DNA of 20,000 nucleotides, taken from the NCBI GenBank assembly GCA_049322255.1, contig JBMORE010000166.1, positions 44,060-64,059 of the forward strand, in the 5' to 3' direction. Below are positions 4,751-19,020 of this stretch, piece after piece. Position numbers and translations under genes: made by a program. The notes beneath the pieces are model-generated. The model made no database searches. It worked only from the letters and a program-made list of their open reading frames with translations, and was not told where the DNA came from. Each line of letters starts with the position of its first letter. Position 1 is the first letter of the stretch. The DNA comes from Myxococcota bacterium (lineage in GTDB: Bacteria > Myxococcota > Myxococcia > Myxococcales > Myxococcaceae).

Positions 4751-5155
4751 TCATGGTGCGCCGGCCCGGAGCATTTCCGCGGCGAACCGCTCGAGGCGAG
4801 CCAAGTCGCGCAGCGCCGCGTCGACCCGTTTCCAGTCGACGTCGGTGTACTGATGGACGAGCACGTTTCGGAGCCCCACCGCCTCGCGCAGCTGCTTCGC
4901 CAGCTCACCGGTGACGATTCCGTGGCGGGCGAGGATGTCGAACTCTTCGCCCACCGTTCCCGGAGCGCCGAGGCCCCGGTCGGCAATCAGATGCTCTGCC
5001 AAGTCCGAGCAGAGCTCCACCGCCAGCACCAGGTAATAGGCCGCCAGGTCTCGTTCTTGCTCGTGCGGCGGCAGACCGCTCGGCGCGAGTGCCAAGAGCT
5101 TCGACAGGCGCTCCGAGAGGCGCTCTACCTTCCGGCGCATGACCTCCGCCGTCAT
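4751..5155 (-). CDS. hepT: HEPN (DUF86) RNase toxin, type VII TA system
   Basis: GLRNVLVHQY matches RX4HXY; ATG 5155 overlaps the mntA stop (ATGA); 134 aa. Confidence 0.9.
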   Translation of the reverse strand: MTAEVMRRKVERLSERLSKLLALAPSGLPPHEQERDLAAYYLVLAVELCSDLAEHLIADRGLGAPGTVGEEFDILARHGIVTGELAKQLREAVGLRNVLVHQYTDVDWKRVDAALRDLARLERFAAEMLRAGAP

Positions 5156-5553
5156 GGGTGGTGCTCCAGGAGACGCTTGATCCGCGCGTCGGTACACCGC
5201 CGCCACCTCGGGCCCCATTCTCGCCACTCGCGGAATGCCGCTCGCCGAAACTCGACCCAGTCTTCGTGTCGTCCGGCGATTTGCACGCCTTTGCTGATCT
5301 CGAGCTTCAAGAGGATATCGAGCGGATCGTCGAGGAATACCACGTCGACCCTTCGACCGACCGCCTTCGAGAGGTCCGCGACGAGCCCTCCGAGCTCCCA
5401 GCCGACGACCGGGCGCGTCAACCGCAGCGCGACATCGACGTCGCTCTTCGGCGAAAGCTCTCCTCGCGCCGCGGAGCCGAAGACGGCCGCAAGCCGGACA
5501 TCGGGCCGCCCCGCAAGCTCCTCGGTCAGCCGCGCAACGGCGTCGTCCATCAT
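5152..5553 (-). CDS. mntA: Minimal nucleotidyltransferase antitoxin, type VII TA system
   Basis: VFGSAARGELSPKSDVDVA matches GSX10DXD, followed by RRVDVVFL; lies immediately upstream of the HEPN gene. Confidence 0.9.
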   Translation of the reverse strand: MMDDAVARLTEELAGRPDVRLAAVFGSAARGELSPKSDVDVALRLTRPVVGWELGGLVADLSKAVGRRVDVVFLDDPLDILLKLEISKGVQIAGRHEDWVEFRRAAFREWREWGPRWRRCTDARIKRLLEHHP

Positions 5554-6067: not shown

Positions 6068-6679
6068 TCAACGCTGCTTGAGCGTCCCCAGGAGGGCGTC
6101 AATCCACCGGTGGCTGATGCCGAAGTTCATGGTGGGGTCGGCGAAGTGGTGCGCCATGTGGTGGCTGCGAATGGCCTTGCCCCACGGGGTCTTCGGGGTG
6201 CGGAAGTGGGTGGACCAGTGGGTGAAGTCGTAGAAGAGGTAACCGGCCACGATGCCGCAGAAGTAGGGGAGGGTGGCGGCGGGCCGACCCACCAGCGCGA
6301 GCAGGCCGCCGATGACCAGCGCCAGGGGAATGCTGCCGCCCAGAGGCATCACCAGCCGCGCCTCGTCGTCGGGGTACTTGTGGTGGTAGCCGTGCACGAT
6401 GTCGTGGATGCGCCGGCTGATGGGCCCGTTCCCCTCCCAATGGAAGTAGAAGCGGTGAATGGAGTACTCCATGAAGGACCAGGTGAGCCAGCCGAGCGCC
6501 GTGAATGCCACCGCCCACTTCCAGGTGGTGAGCCCGCTGTACAGCCCGTACCCCATCAGCCCGGTGACGATGGGGATGTAGAAGAGGAAGGGGGTGGAGG
6601 GGTGGACGCGAGAGCAAGCCTCGAGGAAGGAGTTCTCGAACATCCGCGTGGACGCGTGACGGGAGTAGTCCATCTTCAT
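6068..6679 (-). CDS. Fatty acid hydroxylase / sterol desaturase family protein (FA2H-like)
   Basis: His boxes EYSIHRFYFH, HGYHHKYP, YDFTHWSTH and HHMAHHF; RLVMP and NFGIS motifs. Confidence 0.92.
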   Translation of the reverse strand: MKMDYSRHASTRMFENSFLEACSRVHPSTPFLFYIPIVTGLMGYGLYSGLTTWKWAVAFTALGWLTWSFMEYSIHRFYFHWEGNGPISRRIHDIVHGYHHKYPDDEARLVMPLGGSIPLALVIGGLLALVGRPAATLPYFCGIVAGYLFYDFTHWSTHFRTPKTPWGKAIRSHHMAHHFADPTMNFGISHRWIDALLGTLKQR

Positions 6680-9956: not shown

Positions 9957-10056
9957 NNNNNNNNNNNNNNNNNNNNNNNNNNNNNNNNNNNNNNNNNNNN
10001 NNNNNNNNNNNNNNNNNNNNNNNNNNNNNNNNNNNNNNNNNNNNNNNNNNNNNNNN
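9957..10056. other. Assembly gap (100 N)
   Basis: Run of exactly 100 N, typical of an unknown-size placeholder. Confidence 0.99.
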
Positions 10057-10134: not shown

Positions 10135-11217
10135 CTACGGAGTGGGAGCGGGCGCCCCCTCAGGAGCCGGCGGCGGCGCGGGCGGAGCAAAGGGCGGCTG
10201 CGCCTCCAGCTTCTTTTGCAGCTCGTACGCCCCGTCGGTGCCGCGCAGCTGGACGAGCGACTGTACGTAGTACACCAGCGCCCACAGCTTGTCCTCCTCC
10301 AGCACCCCCTTCCACCCGGGCATCGCCGCGCCGCCGATGCCCACCCCGATGGTGCGATAGAGGTCCTCCCGCTGCATCGCCTCGGTGTAGGCCACGTAGT
10401 TGTAGTCGCCCTCGTTCACCTCGGTGCCCACCGGGTAGGCGGTCTTCACCGGGTGGAAGAGGAAGTCTGGCGGCAAGAGCTGGTGGGTCTTGGTGGGCTC
10501 CCCCGCCTCGTCGTAGGCGATGGGGTACTCGCTGGCCTTGAGGGAGGAGCGGTACATCTCCTCGGAGAACTCGGTCACCGGGCTGGTCGGGTCGGCCTGC
10601 AAGGACATCTCGTAGATTTTCTGCTTGGTCTCGTAGGCGCGGTGGCAGCCGGAGCAGCCGGCCCCCCCCACCGCCACGTGGTAGACGCGGCTGCCCAAGG
10701 CAATTGCTTCGTCCTTCTTGCCCGCCCACGGGTCGGGAGCGATTTGAATCTCCGGGGGCACTCCTTCTTCCGTCCAGCGGGGAGAGAGAGTTTTCAAGTA
10801 AGCGATGAGGGCCTTGCGCTCCACCGCGGGGATGTCCCAGGGCAGCATCGGAGTGCCGTGGAGCCCGCGGCGAAGGGTGCGGTCGAGCGCGGCGTCCACC
10901 GGGAGCTGCCCGAAGGCGGTGCCGGGAAACTTGAACAGACCGCGCCCGAAGTTACGCGGAGGCGGGCGCATGGTCGCCGCCGAGGGGCCGTGGCCGTCGC
11001 CCTTCTCTCCGTGGCAGGCGTAGCAGTACATCATGTACGCCTCGTAGCCGTCGGTGAGCAGCTGCGCTGAGAGCACCTCGCCCGAGTTGGGCACCGCGTT
11101 GCCCTCGGCGTCGACCTTGTCGGCGAGCTTCAACGGCTCGGAAAACGACTTGCGGGTGCAACCTGCCGCCAGCGCCGCCACCGCCAACACCAAACCGAAG
11201 TACCCCTTGGGGGACAT
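10135..11217 (-). CDS. Di-heme cytochrome c lipoprotein (oxidase-associated)
   Basis: ATG 11217 gives MSPKGYFGLVLAVAALAAGC lipobox; CYACH and CSGCH; likely distal Met ligands in GTPMLPW and GAAMPGW. Confidence 0.9.
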   Translation of the reverse strand: MSPKGYFGLVLAVAALAAGCTRKSFSEPLKLADKVDAEGNAVPNSGEVLSAQLLTDGYEAYMMYCYACHGEKGDGHGPSAATMRPPPRNFGRGLFKFPGTAFGQLPVDAALDRTLRRGLHGTPMLPWDIPAVERKALIAYLKTLSPRWTEEGVPPEIQIAPDPWAGKKDEAIALGSRVYHVAVGGAGCSGCHRAYETKQKIYEMSLQADPTSPVTEFSEEMYRSSLKASEYPIAYDEAGEPTKTHQLLPPDFLFHPVKTAYPVGTEVNEGDYNYVAYTEAMQREDLYRTIGVGIGGAAMPGWKGVLEEDKLWALVYYVQSLVQLRGTDGAYELQKKLEAQPPFAPPAPPPAPEGAPAPTP

Positions 11218-11228
11218 CGACAGCCTCC

Positions 11229-11840
11229 TCACATCACGAAGATGGACACGAACATCAGCGCCCAGACGACTCCAACGAAGTGCCAATACATCGCCCACAG
11301 GCGCACCGGCAGGTACCGCGCGGCGCTGAACTCGCCGCCGAACGCACGCGCACAAACACGGCCTATCCCAGCCAGGCCCACCAGCACGTGTAGCGCGTGC
11401 AAGGCGGTGAGCCCGTAGAAGACGCTGGCGTAAGCGCCTCCGGCTTTCATGGTAAGCCCTTCGGCCCACAGCGACGCCCACAAAAGCGTCTGTAAGCCCA
11501 GGAAGAGGGCCCCCAACAGCAGCGCCCACAGCAGCGCCGGCCCCAGCGCCTTCACCTTCGCCCGCTGGACAGAGAAGAGCCCGTACTGCAGCGCTGCGCT
11601 GGACAGAGCGATGACCAAGGTATTCGCCAGAGGCAACCACAGGGGCAGCGCGGGCAAGTCCACCGGCGGCCAGGTGCCGGCCCGCGCGCGCACTCCGCCG
11701 TAGACGAAGAAGAGCGCGGCAAACATCATCGCCCAGGAGCCGAGGAAGATGACCATGCCGATGAAGGCGGTGGTTTCTTCCTTCACCCCCTTGGGGCGGT
11801 AGGGCAAAAGCTGGCCCACGGGCGTGGCGGCCTCGGACAT
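11229..11840 (-). CDS. Heme-copper oxidase subunit III family, second copy (5-TM)
   Basis: GMVIFLGSWAMMFAALF, YASVFYGLTALHALHV, MYWHFVGVVW. Confidence 0.9.
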   Translation of the reverse strand: MSEAATPVGQLLPYRPKGVKEETTAFIGMVIFLGSWAMMFAALFFVYGGVRARAGTWPPVDLPALPLWLPLANTLVIALSSAALQYGLFSVQRAKVKALGPALLWALLLGALFLGLQTLLWASLWAEGLTMKAGGAYASVFYGLTALHALHVLVGLAGIGRVCARAFGGEFSAARYLPVRLWAMYWHFVGVVWALMFVSIFVM

Positions 11841-11843
11841 CGG

Positions 11844-13643
11844 TTAGCTCTTCGCCCCCACCGCCGCCGGTTGGGCCGCGCCTCCCTGAGAGGAGGGCAG
11901 CTCTTCGGCTTGGCCAATCCAGTCGCGGCCCAGCGCCCGCTTCACCTCGGGGTTGGCGTACTCATGCGGCCCGCGCAGCACAGTGGGAATGGGGTGGTAG
12001 TTGTACCACTTGGGGGGCGACTCGCAGTGGGTCCACTCCAGGGTGCCCACCTGCCAGGGGTTGGCGTCTGCCTTCTTCCCCGCGAAGACGCTCTTGAAGA
12101 AGTTGATGACGAAGAAGAACTGGGAGATGCCCAGAAGGAAGGCGGCCCAGCTGGTCATCCGGTTGAGCGGGAGCAGGTGCTGTAAGAAGGTGTACTGGAA
12201 GGGGTCGTAGAGCCGCCGCTGCTGGCCCGAGTAGCCCGCCACCAGCTGCCCGCAGAACACCAAGGTGATGAAGATGACCGAGCCCCAGAAGTGGGCCTTG
12301 GCCAGGCCTTCGTTCATCTGCCGGCCGAACATCTTGGGGAACCAGAAGTAGAGGGCGCCGAAGCTGCCCAGGAAGGCGGCGGCGGCCATCGTCAGGTGGA
12401 AGTGGCCCACCACCCACATGGTGTCGTGCAGGTAGATGTCCGTCATGATGGTGCCCAGGTAGAGGCCGGTGAGGCCTCCTAGGCCGAAGACGAACACCGT
12501 GCCCAAGGAGAAGAGCATCGGGGAGGGGAAGCGGCTCGAGCCCTTCCACAAGGTGTGCAGCCAGTTGAGGAAAAGGACTTCGGCCGGCACCGAGATGATG
12601 AGGGTGAAAATCATGAACCCCTTGCCCAAAAGGGGGTTCATCCCGGTGAGGAACATGTGGTGCCCGTAGACGACCGCCGAGAGCACCGTCACCGACACCA
12701 TCGCCCAAACCGAGCCCTTGTACCAATAGGCGGGCTTACGGGCGAAGAAGGAGATGATGTCCGAGATGAAACCCCACGCGGGGAGAATGAGGATGTAGAC
12801 CTCGGGGTGCCCGAAAATCCAGAAGAGGTGCTGGAAGAGCAAGGGGTCGCCGCCGCCCTGCACTCCCGCGGCCCCGGCGATGAAGAACTGGGTGCCGAAG
12901 TGGCGGTCGAGGAGGAGAAGCAGACCCGCCGAGCCGAGCACCGGCACGAACAAGACGTTCAAGATGGCGGTGAGCCACAACCCCCACACGGTGAGCGGCA
13001 TGCGCATGTAGGTCATCCCCGGCGCCCGCATGCGAATGACGGTGGTGACGTAGTTCACCCCGCCCATGATGGTGGCCGCGCCGGTGACGAAGATGGCCGC
13101 CACCACCAGGGACTGTCCCATCCCCGGTGTTCCCACCTGAGTAGACAGAGGCGCATACGTCGTCCACCCCGCGCCCGCGCTGCCCAGCTGAGCCATGAAG
13201 CTGGCGATGATGAGGGCTTGGGAGAGGACGAAGGTCCAGAAGCTGTACATGTTCAGCCGCGGGAAGGCCATGTCCTGCGCCCCAATCATCAGAGGGATGC
13301 AGTAGTTGCCGAAGCAGCCAATCATGATGGGGGTAATCGCCCAGAACACCATGATGAGGCCGTGCATGGTGAAGATGGATTGGTACACCGCCGGGGTGAT
13401 GACGCCGCCCGAGCGGGGCAAGAACAGCCCGAACACCGGCACCGGCGTGCCCGGGTACGCCCACTGCCAGCGAATCATCATCGCAAGCAGGCCGCCCAGG
13501 GCGAGGAAGATGAGCCCCGCCCATAAAAACTGCTTGGCGATGACCTTGTGGTCGAGGCTGAAGAGGTACTTGCTGACGAAGGTGGTCGGCTCCGGGTGCA
13601 CCCCGGGAACTTCCTGGCCGTCGATGATTGCCCAGTGCGCCAT
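11844..13643 (-). CDS. ctaD: Cytochrome c oxidase subunit I (A-family-like, atypical K-channel)
   Basis: DHKVIA, TMHG, GNY, DMAFPRLN, GWTTYAPLS, FGHPEVYILILP, YGHHMF, LHDT, GHFH, QRR; ATG 13643 after GGAAGGAG. Confidence 0.96.
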   Translation of the reverse strand: MAHWAIIDGQEVPGVHPEPTTFVSKYLFSLDHKVIAKQFLWAGLIFLALGGLLAMMIRWQWAYPGTPVPVFGLFLPRSGGVITPAVYQSIFTMHGLIMVFWAITPIMIGCFGNYCIPLMIGAQDMAFPRLNMYSFWTFVLSQALIIASFMAQLGSAGAGWTTYAPLSTQVGTPGMGQSLVVAAIFVTGAATIMGGVNYVTTVIRMRAPGMTYMRMPLTVWGLWLTAILNVLFVPVLGSAGLLLLLDRHFGTQFFIAGAAGVQGGGDPLLFQHLFWIFGHPEVYILILPAWGFISDIISFFARKPAYWYKGSVWAMVSVTVLSAVVYGHHMFLTGMNPLLGKGFMIFTLIISVPAEVLFLNWLHTLWKGSSRFPSPMLFSLGTVFVFGLGGLTGLYLGTIMTDIYLHDTMWVVGHFHLTMAAAAFLGSFGALYFWFPKMFGRQMNEGLAKAHFWGSVIFITLVFCGQLVAGYSGQQRRLYDPFQYTFLQHLLPLNRMTSWAAFLLGISQFFFVINFFKSVFAGKKADANPWQVGTLEWTHCESPPKWYNYHPIPTVLRGPHEYANPEVKRALGRDWIGQAEELPSSQGGAAQPAAVGAKS

Positions 13644-13645
13644 GG

Positions 13646-14521
13646 CTACTGCTGCTCCTTCCACGCCCAGCCCCAGTGGGCCGAGGTGTCTTCAGGGTCG
13701 AACGCCCGCTTGCCGTTGATGCCCGCCTCGTGCTCCCACCGCCGGTAGTCCTCCTGGGAGTGCACGATGAGCTTGGCCTTCATCTTGTAATGGTGGGTGC
13801 CGCAGTGCTGGGCGCAGCCGATGTCGAACTCGCCCGGCTCCTTGGCGCGGAACCACAGCTGGTTCACCTGCCCGGGCACCGCATCCATCTTCACCCTGAA
13901 ATTCGGCAGGTAGAAGGAGTGAATCACGTCGGTGGCGGTCAATTGCAGGTGCACCGGGGTGTCCACCGGCACGTGGAGCTCGTTCCAGGTGAGGATGTCG
14001 TCGGGGCTGGGCGCGGCAGGCGTGGAGAAGCGCTTGTCTTCGCCGGCGTAGCGCCCGTCCCACGCCCACTGGTGGGCGTTCACCTCGATGCGCACCGTGT
14101 TCGCGTCGTTCTGGGGGATGGAGAAGTTCCAGAACGCTTTGTCCAGGCCGATGATGGTGTTGACGAAGAGGTTGCCGTCCACCACCGCGAAGATGAACGC
14201 CGAGAGGCACAGGGCGATGGTGACGCTGCGCTTGGACTCGCCGTGGTCGTACTCCGCCTCATGGTGGGCGTTGTGCTTGAAGCAGGCGACGGCCATCCAC
14301 ACACACATGATGACGAAGAGAATGATGTTGAAGACGTGGGTGACGTTGATGAGCCAGTCGATGAGGTGGCCGTCGTGGGAGACGTCGCGCGGCAGCCCCA
14401 AGCCGCCTTCTGGCTGCACCGCGGCGTGGGCGTAGCGGGCGGCGAGGGCCAAACCGGTGGCGACAAGCCCGAAGAGCGGCAAGCGCACGCGGCGAAGGAA
14501 GGAGCGAAGGGTGGGGTTCAT
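13646..14521 (-). CDS. ctaC: Cytochrome c oxidase subunit II (CuA), no fused cytochrome c
   Basis: AHQWAW, DVIHSF, KMDAVPG, CAQHCGTHHYKM; two TM helices; ATG 14521 overlaps the upstream stop (ATGA). Confidence 0.94.
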   Translation of the reverse strand: MNPTLRSFLRRVRLPLFGLVATGLALAARYAHAAVQPEGGLGLPRDVSHDGHLIDWLINVTHVFNIILFVIMCVWMAVACFKHNAHHEAEYDHGESKRSVTIALCLSAFIFAVVDGNLFVNTIIGLDKAFWNFSIPQNDANTVRIEVNAHQWAWDGRYAGEDKRFSTPAAPSPDDILTWNELHVPVDTPVHLQLTATDVIHSFYLPNFRVKMDAVPGQVNQLWFRAKEPGEFDIGCAQHCGTHHYKMKAKLIVHSQEDYRRWEHEAGINGKRAFDPEDTSAHWGWAWKEQQ

Positions 14522-14727
14522 GGGGACTCCGTCGAGTCGTCTTGCAGGGCGCGGCGAATGACCTGTCCCGTCACCAGCGCCACGCCAAAGGGAAGAAGAA
14601 TCATCGCGCCGAGCAAGAACACCTTGGTCACTCCCCCCTCGTCTCGGCCGGCGCACGCAGGACAGGCCAGGGCCAGGCGAGGAGCGAGGGTAAAAAGGAG
14701 CGCCGCCGCCCAAGCGAAGGTCTTCAC
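14518..14727 (-). CDS. Small exported membrane-anchored CxxC protein in the oxidase operon
   Basis: GTGA and ATGA overlaps with both neighbours; signal peptide ending ALA, then CPAC, then one TM helix. Confidence 0.8.
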   Translation of the reverse strand: MKTFAWAAALLFTLAPRLALACPACAGRDEGGVTKVFLLGAMILLPFGVALVTGQVIRRALQDDSTESP

Positions 14728-15044
14728 GGCAACAGCCTCCAGACCGCCTCGGCGATGAGCACGAAGGCGTACAGCGCCGGGAGGAGGAAGGGCAGCACCA
14801 CGGTCAGCTGGAGCGCCCGCATCTCCTGCTTGAGGTGCATGTAGTAGTAGCCGACGAAGCCGGCCTTGGTGAGCGCCATCAAGATGAGCGCGATGCCCAC
14901 GTTGCGACGGGAGATGCCCAACGCCGGGTTGGCCACCGCCACCTCGAGCACGGTGAGCACGAAGAGCACCCCGAACACCACGAAGTAGGGCTTGCGGCTG
15001 TGCGCGTGGCCGGCCGGCCCGTGTCCTTGTCCCTGATCCGCCAT
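14724..15044 (-). CDS. Cytochrome c oxidase subunit IV family (COX4_pro)
   Basis: YFVVFGVLFVLTVLEV and KAGFVGYYYMHLKQE; three TM helices. Confidence 0.9.
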   Translation of the reverse strand: MADQGQGHGPAGHAHSRKPYFVVFGVLFVLTVLEVAVANPALGISRRNVGIALILMALTKAGFVGYYYMHLKQEMRALQLTVVLPFLLPALYAFVLIAEAVWRLLP

Positions 15045-15055
15045 CGGTCGATGTC

Positions 15056-15688
15056 CTAGAGCAAGTAGATGAAGGTGAAGACGAGAATCCAGATGAGGTC
15101 CACGAAGTGCCAGAACAGGCCGAGCACCTCGACCTCGTTGTGGTCGGTCTTCCCGGCCATCGTCCGGACCATGGTGATGAGGATGTAGAGGGTCCCGGTG
15201 AGGACGTGCAGGCCGTGGAAGCTGGTGGTGACGTAGAAGGTGGAGGCGTAGGCGCTCTTGCCGAACACCAGCCCCTCGTGGGTCAGCCCGTGGCTGGCCA
15301 CCCCGAAGACGCCCCAGTACTCCTCCATCTGTCCGGCGAGGAAGAGGGCTCCGCCCAGAGCGGTGAGCGCCAGCCAGCGCACCGTGGCTTTGCGGTCATG
15401 CTCGGCTGCTGCGGCCACTGCCAGCACCATGGTGACCGAAGAGCAAATGAGGAGGAAGGTGAGCCCGGCGGTGAAGTTGATGCCCAGGGCTGGTTCGGTG
15501 GGCCCCCGCCACACCGCGCTGCCCCCGCGCAAGATGCCGTAGGCCAAAAGGAGCCCGCCAAAGGAGAAGGCGTCGGAGAGGAGGAAAATCCACATCCCGA
15601 TTTTGCCGGTAGTGGCGGTGCCGAAGTGCTCGTCGGGGGGAAGAACATGGGCGGCGTGTCCATGCTCAGCAGTCGCGGTGGCGCTCAT
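15056..15688 (-). CDS. ctaE: Cytochrome c oxidase subunit III, first gene of the operon (5-TM)
   Basis: KIGMWIFLLSDAFSF, TFLLICSSVTM, TSFHGLHV, GLFWHFVDLIWILVFTFIYL; ATG 15688. Confidence 0.92.
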   Translation of the reverse strand: MSATATAEHGHAAHVLPPDEHFGTATTGKIGMWIFLLSDAFSFGGLLLAYGILRGGSAVWRGPTEPALGINFTAGLTFLLICSSVTMVLAVAAAAEHDRKATVRWLALTALGGALFLAGQMEEYWGVFGVASHGLTHEGLVFGKSAYASTFYVTTSFHGLHVLTGTLYILITMVRTMAGKTDHNEVEVLGLFWHFVDLIWILVFTFIYLL

Positions 15689-15848: not shown

Positions 15849-16388
15849 CTAACGAGCAAGAAGTGCGCGGCGCATCTCGTCCAGCTGGGTGCGTAAGGTA
15901 CCGTCGAACAGTTGCGAGCCGACCTGGGCCGCCGCTCCGCCGAGCACCTTGGGGTCCACCCGCGGCTCGAGCACCACGTCACGCTGGGTCAGCCGCTCGA
16001 GAGACTTTTCGAGCTTCTCCACCGCGTCTTTGGGGAGCGGCACCGCGCTCACCACCTTGCCGCGCACCCGGCCCGCCTTGACGTCGGTGAGGTCTTGATA
16101 GAGGCGGGCGATGTCCGGCAGATACCCCAGGCGGTTGCGCTCGATGAGCAGGCGAAGGAGGTTGGCCAACGTCGGTTGAAGCCCGCCGGCCGCGGTCATC
16201 ACCGCCTCCAGCACCGCCAGCCGCTGCGCGCGGGTGTAGGCCGGGTTTTGCACCACCTCGGCCAGCTCGGCGTTGGCCGCGAGCGCCTGCACGAAGCCGT
16301 TGAGCTCTGAAAGGACGGCGTCCGCCTGGGCCCCTGCCGCCTCGAGCAGGGCACGGGCATAGCGGCGCGCGACGGAGACATTGACCAT
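15849..16388 (-). CDS. atpH: ATP synthase F1 subunit delta
   Basis: VARRYARALLE, NLLRLLIERNRL, VVSAVPL, VDPKVLGG, FDGTLRTQL; 179 aa. Confidence 0.95.
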   Translation of the reverse strand: MVNVSVARRYARALLEAAGAQADAVLSELNGFVQALAANAELAEVVQNPAYTRAQRLAVLEAVMTAAGGLQPTLANLLRLLIERNRLGYLPDIARLYQDLTDVKAGRVRGKVVSAVPLPKDAVEKLEKSLERLTQRDVVLEPRVDPKVLGGAAAQVGSQLFDGTLRTQLDEMRRALLAR

Positions 16389-17211: not shown

Positions 17212-19020
17212 ATGAGCGAGCCTGTCATCGGCATCGACCTGGGAACGACCTTCAGCGCGGTGGCCACCGTGGAGGGAGGCCGCCCGCGCCTCATCCCCAC
17301 CCGCGCCGGAGGGCGCCTCACCCCCTCGATGGTGGGATTCACCAAGACGGGCGAGCGGGTGGTGGGGGAACGGGCGCGGCTGCTCTCCGAGGCTTTCCCC
17401 GAGCACGTGGCCTACGCCACCAAGCGCTTCATCGGCCGGCGGCACACGCCCGAGCTGTCCGTCGCCGCGCGGGCGCAGGTGCCCTACCAGCTGCTCCCCG
17501 GCCCCAGCGGAGAGGTGCGTATCAAGGTGGCGGGCCGCATTCTGCCCCTCACCCAGGTGAGCGCGATGATTCTGGGCGAGCTCAAGCTCGACGCCGAGGC
17601 CTACTTCGGGCGCCCGGTGACCAAGGCGGTGGTGACCGTCCCCGCCAACTTCGACGACGCCCAGCGCACCGCCACCAAGGAAGCGGCGCGCATCGCCGGG
17701 CTCGATGTCTTGCGCATCATCAACGAGCCCACCGCCGCGGCGGTCGCCTACGGGCTCACTGAAAAGTTCGAGGGCCGCGCCTTGGTCTTCGACTTGGGAG
17801 GCGGAACCTTCGACGTCTCCATTCTCGAGGTGGAGAAGGGCGTCTTCCAGGTCAAGGCCACCGGGGGCGACCCCCTCCTGGGAGGCGAGGACTTCGACAA
17901 CCGCATCGTGCAGTGGCTCATCGCCCAGCTGCCTGAGCCGTTCCGCGAGGCGGTGAGCAAAGACAAGCTCTCGCTGATGCGGTTGAAAATCGCCTCCGAG
18001 AAGGCCAAGCGCGAGCTCACCGAGCGCGAGGAGGCGTACATCTCGGTCTTCGACTTGGGAGACCAACAAGAGAAGAAGCTCACCTCTTTGGAGACCGCGC
18101 TCACCCGCACCTTCTTCCATCAGCTCTCCGAGCCGCTCACCCGCCGCTGCCTCGAGGTGTGCCAGCGGGTGATGAGCGAAGCGGCGGTCGACCCCAAGTC
18201 GATGAATGCGCTCCTTTTGGTGGGGGGGATGACCCGGGTGCCCCTGGTGCGGCAGCTGGCCGCCGATTTCTTCGGGCGCCACCCGGTTTCAGGGGTGAAC
18301 CCCGACGAGGTGGTGGCCCTGGGAGCGGCGGTGCAGGCGGCGGAGCTGGCGGGCAAGAGCGGGCAGGCGCTGCTCATCGACGTGGTGGGGCACTCCTTCG
18401 GGGTGGGTGTCTTGGGGGGCGTGGTGCGCAAGCTCATCACCAAGAACACTCCGGTGCCGGTGGTGGCCAAGGAGGTCTTCCTCCCCGGCCGCCACGGGCA
18501 GACTCAGGCGCGCATCCCGGTGTTCCAGGGCGAGAGCGAGTACGCCGACGAGGCGACCAAGCTGGGAGAGTTGGTGCTGCACGAGCTCAACGTCATTCAT
18601 CGGGCCGAGGTGCCCATCGAGGTGAGCTTCGAGCTGTCCAACGAAGGCACCCTCTCGGTACGCGCGGTGGACATGACCACCGGGCTGGCGGAGGCGATTC
18701 GAATCGAGGCGCGCACCGAGCTGTCGCCCACCGAGGTGGAGAAGCTTTCGCGCGAGCAGACCGAGTACGCCAAGGCCGCCCGGGGCAAAGACGCCGAGGC
18801 GGCGACGGAGAGCTTCAAGCGGGTGCTGGACAAGGCGGAGAAGTTCTGCCGTCTCCTGGAAAAGAGCGCTCAGGAGAACCCCAGCCCCGAGGCCGAGGCC
18901 ACCGTGGCGCGGGTGCGTTCGGTGGTGGAAATGGGCCGGGTGGCGCTGCGCCAGGGCCAGACTGTGCAGATGGCCGAAATGGCTCGTACACTGAAACAGC
19001 TGTTAGGAGCACCGAGCTAA
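17212..19020 (+). CDS. Hsp70 family protein (DnaK-like paralog)
   Basis: [73 protein letters not shown]; divergent substrate-binding domain. Confidence 0.95.

Follow-up and report, generated by a model that had tools for sequence, protein, structure and literature searches.

An A1-type heme-copper oxidase clade without the K-channel lysine, present in myxobacteria, and a candidate proton path

The window analyzed here, a stretch of 20,000 nucleotides from a myxobacterial genome, carries the genes of a heme-copper oxidase in which the canonical K pathway (E101 of subunit II, and K362 and T359 of subunit I, in R. sphaeroides (Rs) numbering) is dismantled. The enzyme belongs to a clade of lysine-less oxidases, and we classify it as A1 by its phylogeny and its D-channel, not by its K-channel. 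We suggest that it is an A1 O2 reductase with a rebuilt proton path resembling those of the B- and C-family oxidases, a reading that we consider an even call.

Subunit I, its helix VIII and the neighboring genes

Window subunit I matched PF00115 with an E-value of 6.5e-131, and its best NCBIfam model, TIGR02891, scored 550 bits, under the cut-off of 671. The first-pass annotation of this DNA had read three substitutions in helix VIII by eye (T to A, G to E and K to L) and had listed the catalytic residues as retained. Alignments made with phmmer to the P. denitrificans (Pd) oxidase (1AR1), the M. tuberculosis oxidase (8HCR) and plant COX1, which run through helix VIII with zero gaps, confirmed all three substitutions. 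The six His ligands (H94, H279, H328, H329, H414 and H416), E281 and Y283 of HPEVY (12809-12795), the D-channel residues D124, N113, N131 and N197 and the Arg pair R476-R477 are all present, as claimed. No Lys occurs in residues 342-366, and misalignment as the source of the Lys loss is ruled out by the gap-free alignments. The K-channel set K354, T351, S291 and Y280 (Pd) reads Leu, Ala, Ser and Tyr, two of the four being lost. An AlphaFold2 model had the COX1 fold, with the R. sphaeroides and P. denitrificans oxidases as top Foldseek matches at a TM of about 0.78; because helix VIII had a pLDDT of 53-63 and active-site confidence was low in the monomer, the register of the helix was taken from the sequence alignment only.

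Table 1. Features of the oxidase locus, with positions in the window
Feature	Position	Strand	Basis
Two-CxxCH cytochrome c, lipoprotein-like N-terminus	10135..11217	-	profile match
Subunit III homologue a (cox3a)	11229..11840	-	PF00510
coxA/ctaD, subunit I, 599 aa, A1 type (FGHPEVY), lysine-less	11844..13643	-	ORF, ATG 13643, stop 11844
Helix VIII motif IISVPAEVLFLNW	12561..12599	-	direct reading
Leu357 in helix VIII	12575-12573	-	at Pd K354/Rs K362
Glu355 in helix VIII	12581-12579	-	at Pd G352/Rs G360
Ala354 in helix VIII	12584-12582	-	at Pd T351/Rs T359
Ser351 in helix VIII	12593-12591	-	equivalent of Pd A348
Asn360 in helix VIII, replacing S365		-	alignment
Helix VII polar set Ser311, Thr319, Ser322, Tyr326	12666..12713	-	alignment
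Helix VI: His279, Glu281, Tyr283 kept; Ser294, Asp295	12759..12809	-	alignment
coxB, subunit II, all CuA ligands, without K-channel entry Glu	13646..14521	-	profile matches and alignment
Subunit II Asp115 in TM2, clade-invariant, in predicted subunit I interface	14177..14179	-	alignment and predicted complex
Subunit IV (caa3-type)	14724..15044	-	TIGR02229 above cut-off
Subunit III homologue b (cox3b)	15056..15688	-	profile match

The change is not a one-off. Among the query and the 120 best-matching homologs (at 71-89% identity), Leu357 is found in 121/121 sequences, Ala354 in 120/121 and Glu355 in 115/121; Ser351 is present and Lys absent in all 121. The dN/dS of the window gene against three relatives was 0.07-0.15. 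Conservation in homologs and low dN/dS rule out a sequencing or assembly error, a pseudogene or chance. The description of a conserved variant without the canonical K pathway holds, and the pattern of the subunit II entry Glu is missing too.

The genes lie in the order cox3b, cox4, coxB, coxA, cox3a and two-heme cytochrome c, all on the minus strand, and the same oxidase gene parts recur in most related loci. The cytochrome c gene adjoins coxA in most clade loci, and its product is likely the electron donor of the oxidase. The source genome (G000; 4.85 Mb, 99.6% complete), whose subunit I has its closest named homologs in Myxococcaceae, contains ctaB, ctaA and two PF00115 genes. The other PF00115 gene encodes an A2-type oxidase that keeps Thr and Lys; it lies behind genes for ActD, NrfD and SCO that belong to an alternative complex III. 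No cytochrome bd was detected in the genome. Just upstream of the oxidase genes is an ATP synthase delta gene (15849-16388, minus strand), the only atp gene recognised in the window. Elsewhere the window holds an archaeal-type ATPase with DUF234 (852-2273, minus), a nucleotidyltransferase and HepT-like pair that is probably an MNT-HEPN toxin-antitoxin module (4751-5553, minus), a fatty acid hydroxylase (6068-6679, minus), a large surface-protein gene (He_PIG domain) with a 100-base N gap (9957-10056) downstream of the cytochrome c, and an Hsp70 paralogue (17212-19020, plus).

The lysine-less clade and its place among the oxidases

A search of GTDB with the pattern I-S-x-P-[A/S]-x-x-(non-Lys hydrophobic)-x-x-N-W-L-x-T gave at least 120 loci, of which 116 among the matches listed were COX1; the pattern itself fixes positions 351, 354, 357 and 360 for the loci that it drew. 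Among the matches listed, the taxa were Myxococcota, Bacteriovoracaceae, Omnitrophota, Marinimicrobia, Planctomycetota, Acidobacteriota and others. A tree of 243 rows was built from the pattern loci, 50%-cluster representatives and the relatives' loci, and rows that did not span the core were dropped. The window protein falls within a clade of 128 rows (120 distinct sequences), with which the Bacteriovoracaceae loci also group; in a 56-row tree this lysine-less A1 clade had an SH-aLRT support of 100 and a stem of 0.39. The Lys site is hydrophobic across the whole clade, and Lys is absent and Ser351 present in 25/25 of the members drawn neither by the pattern nor from the top-120 list.

Lysine loss recurs in many A-family lineages (50% cluster representatives P0122-P0271). 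Outside the clade, Ser occupies position 351 (Pd 348) in 24/37 lysine-less versus 1/78 Lys-bearing rows, these being related and non-independent. A single origin of all Ser351-type lysine-less lineages had a support of 40.5 and was absent from the 243-row tree. The window's family holds a second lysine-less A1 type (L017-L022), with Met at the Lys site, a helix VIII Glu one residue later than Glu355 and an Asp in TM2 of subunit II as well. A third lysine-less type (L016, L158-L161) occurs alongside the window's clade in G333-G336, so that both heme-copper oxidases of these genomes are without the Lys. Public sources attach the name 'cbb3-type cytochrome c oxidase subunit I' to many homologs that are A1 by sequence, a label that would lead surveys of high-affinity oxidases astray.

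The six His ligands and the cross-linkable Tyr are those of a heme-copper O2 reductase. By the family definitions of PMC3084760, the D-channel residues (Pd D124, N113, N131 and N199), the helix VI Glu, a CuA-binding subunit II and subunit III are those of A1 enzymes; the A1 K-channel and the subunit II entry Glu are both missing. The protein aligned with A-family proteins at an E-value of 1e-112 versus 1e-9 with the B and C families. It retains the helix VI Tyr and the D-channel, unlike the B family, which has no D-channel and to which its similarity is weak, and unlike the C family, which has a helix VII Tyr where the window enzyme has Ser322 and cytochrome c subunits where it has a CuA subunit. 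NO reductases (cNOR, qNOR, eNOR, sNOR, bNOR, gNOR and nNOR) are defined by the absence of the cross-link Tyr (PMC11214002), which is present here as Tyr283.

Canonical A1 aa3 oxidases, whose K-channel residues and K362M behavior are described in PMC10341450 and PMC7601700, served as reference systems (R. sphaeroides 1M56/2GSM, P. denitrificans 1AR1 and the K362M mutant 3OM3). They share the fold, six His, HPEVY Glu and Tyr, D-channel, Arg pair and CuA with the window enzyme, which differs from them in having no K362, T359 or subunit II E101, a Tyr for Trp beside the His-His pair, two subunit III genes and a linked cytochrome c. It also has Gln for the R. sphaeroides Glu in the CuA loop, where the clade is mixed Gln/Glu. 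The A1 subtype a-III (two COX3 genes; Skermanella L032, Hymenobacter L031) likewise has a split subunit III and a subunit IV; its proteins are the best annotated matches (43-45% identity) and lie near the clade in trees, with a support of 40-46 for a sister relation, but they keep Thr/Ser and Lys. In acidophilic iron oxidisers (Acidithiobacillus and relatives), K354 and subunit II E78 are reportedly replaced and the D-channel kept, likewise; those oxidases keep T351, whereas the window's clade does not.

The first-pass annotation had left it open whether the clade was already described. The lysine loss is: Degli Esposti et al. 2021 (PMC8239418, Tables S1 and S3) list an A1 subclade 'Oligoflexia: Bacteriovorax and other taxa' with the K-channel entry 'no, KC', among many other lysine-less A-family lineages. 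The window enzyme groups with Bacteriovorax/Halobacteriovorax COX1, lacks the Lys and the subunit II Glu, and has Asp at Pd H292. The Halobacteriovorax/Bacteriovorax rows of those tables read Y, S, K to F, T to S, N and D, with no subunit II Glu. These are the residues of the Bacteriovoracaceae loci found here, and we take the subclade to be the clade of the window enzyme, a match made by residues and taxon and not by accession; in the window enzyme the changes are instead K to L and T to A. The work is a sequence-only catalogue. Its tables include no myxobacterial member of the subclade and do not score Glu355, Ser351, Tyr326 or the Asp of subunit II. A characterization as a proton pump, or any biochemical study of the clade, was not found in our literature search, and an earlier description of Glu355 or the subunit II Asp is possible. 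The lysine loss is catalogued from sequence; the additions made here are the branch in myxobacteria, the finding that the Glu is optional, a polar set shared across the clade together with the Asp of subunit II, and cultured members in which both channels are missing.

Polar residues, subunit II and the genomes of the clade

A set of polar residues is widely kept in the clade. Among the 120 distinct clade sequences, Ser351 is found in 120, Asp295 in 119, Ser322 in 117, Ser/Thr311 in 116, Asn229 in 116, Tyr326 in 111 and Ser/Thr319 in 106. With the exception of D295, the positions listed carry a polar residue in <30% of the 78 Lys-bearing sequences; position 326, which is Tyr in the window enzyme, is Trp in 77/78 of them. 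Asp295 was rejected as a novelty of the clade, as Asp or Glu is common there in Lys-bearing enzymes (32/78). The cross-link Tyr283 occurs in 128/128 clade rows. Ser322, six residues ahead of the His-His pair, falls on the site of the C-family Tyr (loci L164-L167), an equivalence obtained by counting off the His-His pair because hhalign to a C-family protein covered the C-terminal part only. The bovine residues A313 and G317, equivalents of 351 and 355, presumably line the farnesyl tail of heme a3, and the hydroxyl of this tail is the end of the K-channel; Ser351 could therefore stand in for the lost Thr. No paper placing G360 was found in the literature search.

The pattern of the entry Glu (Pd E78, Rs E101) was not found in the subunit II proteins of the clade. 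An Asp is present in TM2 of subunit II at 88 of 89 clade loci (some loci being duplicates), and the remaining one is truncated. In the window protein, Asp115 is preceded by 15 hydrophobic residues and so would lie toward the outer half of TM2; its register against Rs subunit II is ambiguous. A predicted complex of subunits I and II scored 0.89 (best of three controls, 0.00) on a scale whose mark is reached by 116/157 solved and 2/215 mismatched pairs, and, as this is a textbook pair, the score may pass by likeness to solved structures. The runs agreed in at least 97% of contacts with a partner pLDDT of at least 85, and placed Met344, Ser351 and Glu355, together with Asp115, at the interface.

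In 10 genomes, scored by PF00115 and bd matches only, no terminal oxidase other than the lysine-less enzyme or a further lysine-less type was found. The sole-oxidase genomes are drafts, which can miss genes, and completeness figures are given for a minority of them. It was the sole PF00115 match, with no bd over the cut-off, in 5 of the 31 non-myxobacterial clade genomes (G314, G315, G324, G330 and G332) and in 2 of the 53 genomes with the Glu motif (G089 and G077; 91% and 92% complete), and G334-G336 have two oxidases each, both lysine-less, and no bd. CtaB accompanied the enzyme in 16/16 and CtaA in 15/16 genomes, their genes often adjoining coxA. Since no second heme-copper oxidase was found in seven genomes, and genes for heme O/A synthases are often neighbors of coxA, the enzyme likely reduces O2, and NO or peroxide reduction is unlikely. 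The sole-oxidase genomes, the company of ctaA/ctaB and the invariant Tyr283 favor O2 reduction with farnesylated hemes. A heme b3 without the farnesyl tail was considered as a reason for the helix VIII changes and appears disfavored, because ctaB and ctaA are present in G000 and also, often adjacent to coxA, in the sole-oxidase genomes. At least one further PF00115 match exists in 51/53 Glu-motif genomes, G000 included, so that the enzyme need not carry respiration there.

Proposed proton path and its rivals

In the mechanism that we propose, the enzyme would be a cytochrome c oxidase of the A1 type, equipped with CuA, CuB, two farnesylated hemes and a His-Tyr cofactor, and would turn O2 to water. 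CuA would receive its electrons from the two-heme cytochrome c encoded nearby. Protons of the reductive phase would take a clade-specific polar path among helices VI, VII and VIII and TM2 of subunit II, with its cytoplasmic end at Asp295/Ser294/Asn360, leading on through Ser311, Thr319, Ser322, Ser351 and Tyr326 up to Tyr283, and with Asp115 of subunit II as its buried carboxylate. Such a path would work like the lysine-free Ser/Thr/Tyr channels of the B- and C-family oxidases, in which protons are taken up without a Lys (PMC3084760). Glu355 would be an optional addition, common in myxobacteria and facing subunit II, and the intact D-channel of the window enzyme probably still pumps.

Counting against the rebuilt path, it could be that Leu or Phe, in place of the Lys, does no more than close the channel. 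The enzyme would then be a one-channel O2 reductase that takes all chemical and pumped protons through the D-channel; the new polar residues would adjust heme packing and the His-Tyr site, making a Lys unnecessary for reduction. The Lys site is indeed hydrophobic throughout the clade, the D-channel is intact in 121/121 close sequences, and a like proposal is published for the lysine-less oxidases of iron oxidisers (10.1101/2020.03.01.968255). We hold this reading to be unlikely but deserving of weight, given that the polar gains along helix VII would be superfluous with the D-channel alone and that D-channel residues too are lost in 19/128 clade rows, including named cultured Corallococcus, Pyxidicoccus and Myxococcus proteins (Asp124 to Gln or Gly, Asn131 to Ser, Asn113 to His). 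Seven coxA genes of Corallococcus, Pyxidicoccus, Myxococcus and Hyalangium (L065, L067, L081, L093, L013, L014 and L040) have no D132/N139 equivalents, and most have no N121. The dN/dS in this subgroup (0.10-0.25) indicates purifying selection, so that some other proton entry path is needed if the enzyme is active; the conservation of these members would be the best argument for a third proton route. That they are A-family O2 reductases, perhaps pumping, with neither textbook channel is possible, if doubtful. On another reading, Asp115 would let the protons of the reductive steps in from the periplasm, in the manner of cNOR; the resulting O2 reductase would conserve less energy and could work against a high proton motive force. 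The position of Asp115 toward the outer half of TM2 would suit this scenario, as would the Glu that nine clade rows, all without Glu355, have at position 344 close to the outer end of helix VIII (L007, L042, L076, L092, L098, L102, L107, P0122 and P0138), and the finding that myxobacteria mostly have the lysine-less enzyme as a second oxidase. We find it distinctly improbable, as conserved polar residues occur in the cytoplasmic half as well (S/T311, D295 and N360) and several genomes showed no other oxidase, a situation in which efficiency should matter.

The first-pass annotation had suggested a Glu-based or absent K pathway, and the former would make Glu355 the functional replacement of Lys362. 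It is a buried Glu two residues from the Lys site; the exact motif occurs in 53/301 Myxococcota genomes (backward control, 0), 45/140 of the window's family and 14/20 of genus g13; and the second lysine-less lineage (L017-L022) also carries a Glu, one residue later. Conservation in homologs, proposed as a check, was found for Leu357 and, among close homologs only, for Glu355. Clade-wide, Glu355 is present in just 51/120 distinct sequences, a share lowered in the 243-row tree because the top 120 homologs were thinned to every fifth and all non-Glu ones were kept. A 35-tip subtree requires no fewer than 10 changes at this position, and the Bacteriovoracaceae and Marinimicrobia/Omnitrophota branches lack the Glu. 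Gln or Ile takes its place in L002 and L004, relatives with 80-84% identity, and the predicted complex puts Glu355 at the subunit II interface. Glu355 as the replacement of Lys362 is, therefore, highly doubtful, and as the defining feature of the enzyme it is not supported. The suggestion of a different substrate fared no better. A cytochrome c peroxidase-like enzyme might be expected from R. sphaeroides K362M, which loses oxidase and keeps peroxidase activity (PMC7601700). Tyr283, present in every clade row, is absent from NO reductases, which have Glu there (PMC11214002, PMC3084760); in addition, the full subunit II/III/IV set is accompanied by ctaA/ctaB and the enzyme is the sole or only type of terminal oxidase in the 10 genomes above. 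A peroxidase-like or NO-reducing enzyme seems to us very improbable indeed.

The surprise is limited: for the A family, with this clade among its members, published sequence tables already record the loss of the lysine, which has recurred in many lineages. Natural enzymes do without the Lys across several phyla. Because named cultured carriers exist (a Halobacteriovorax sp., Corallococcus coralloides DSM 2259 and C. exercitus), the question can be tested on wild-type proteins.
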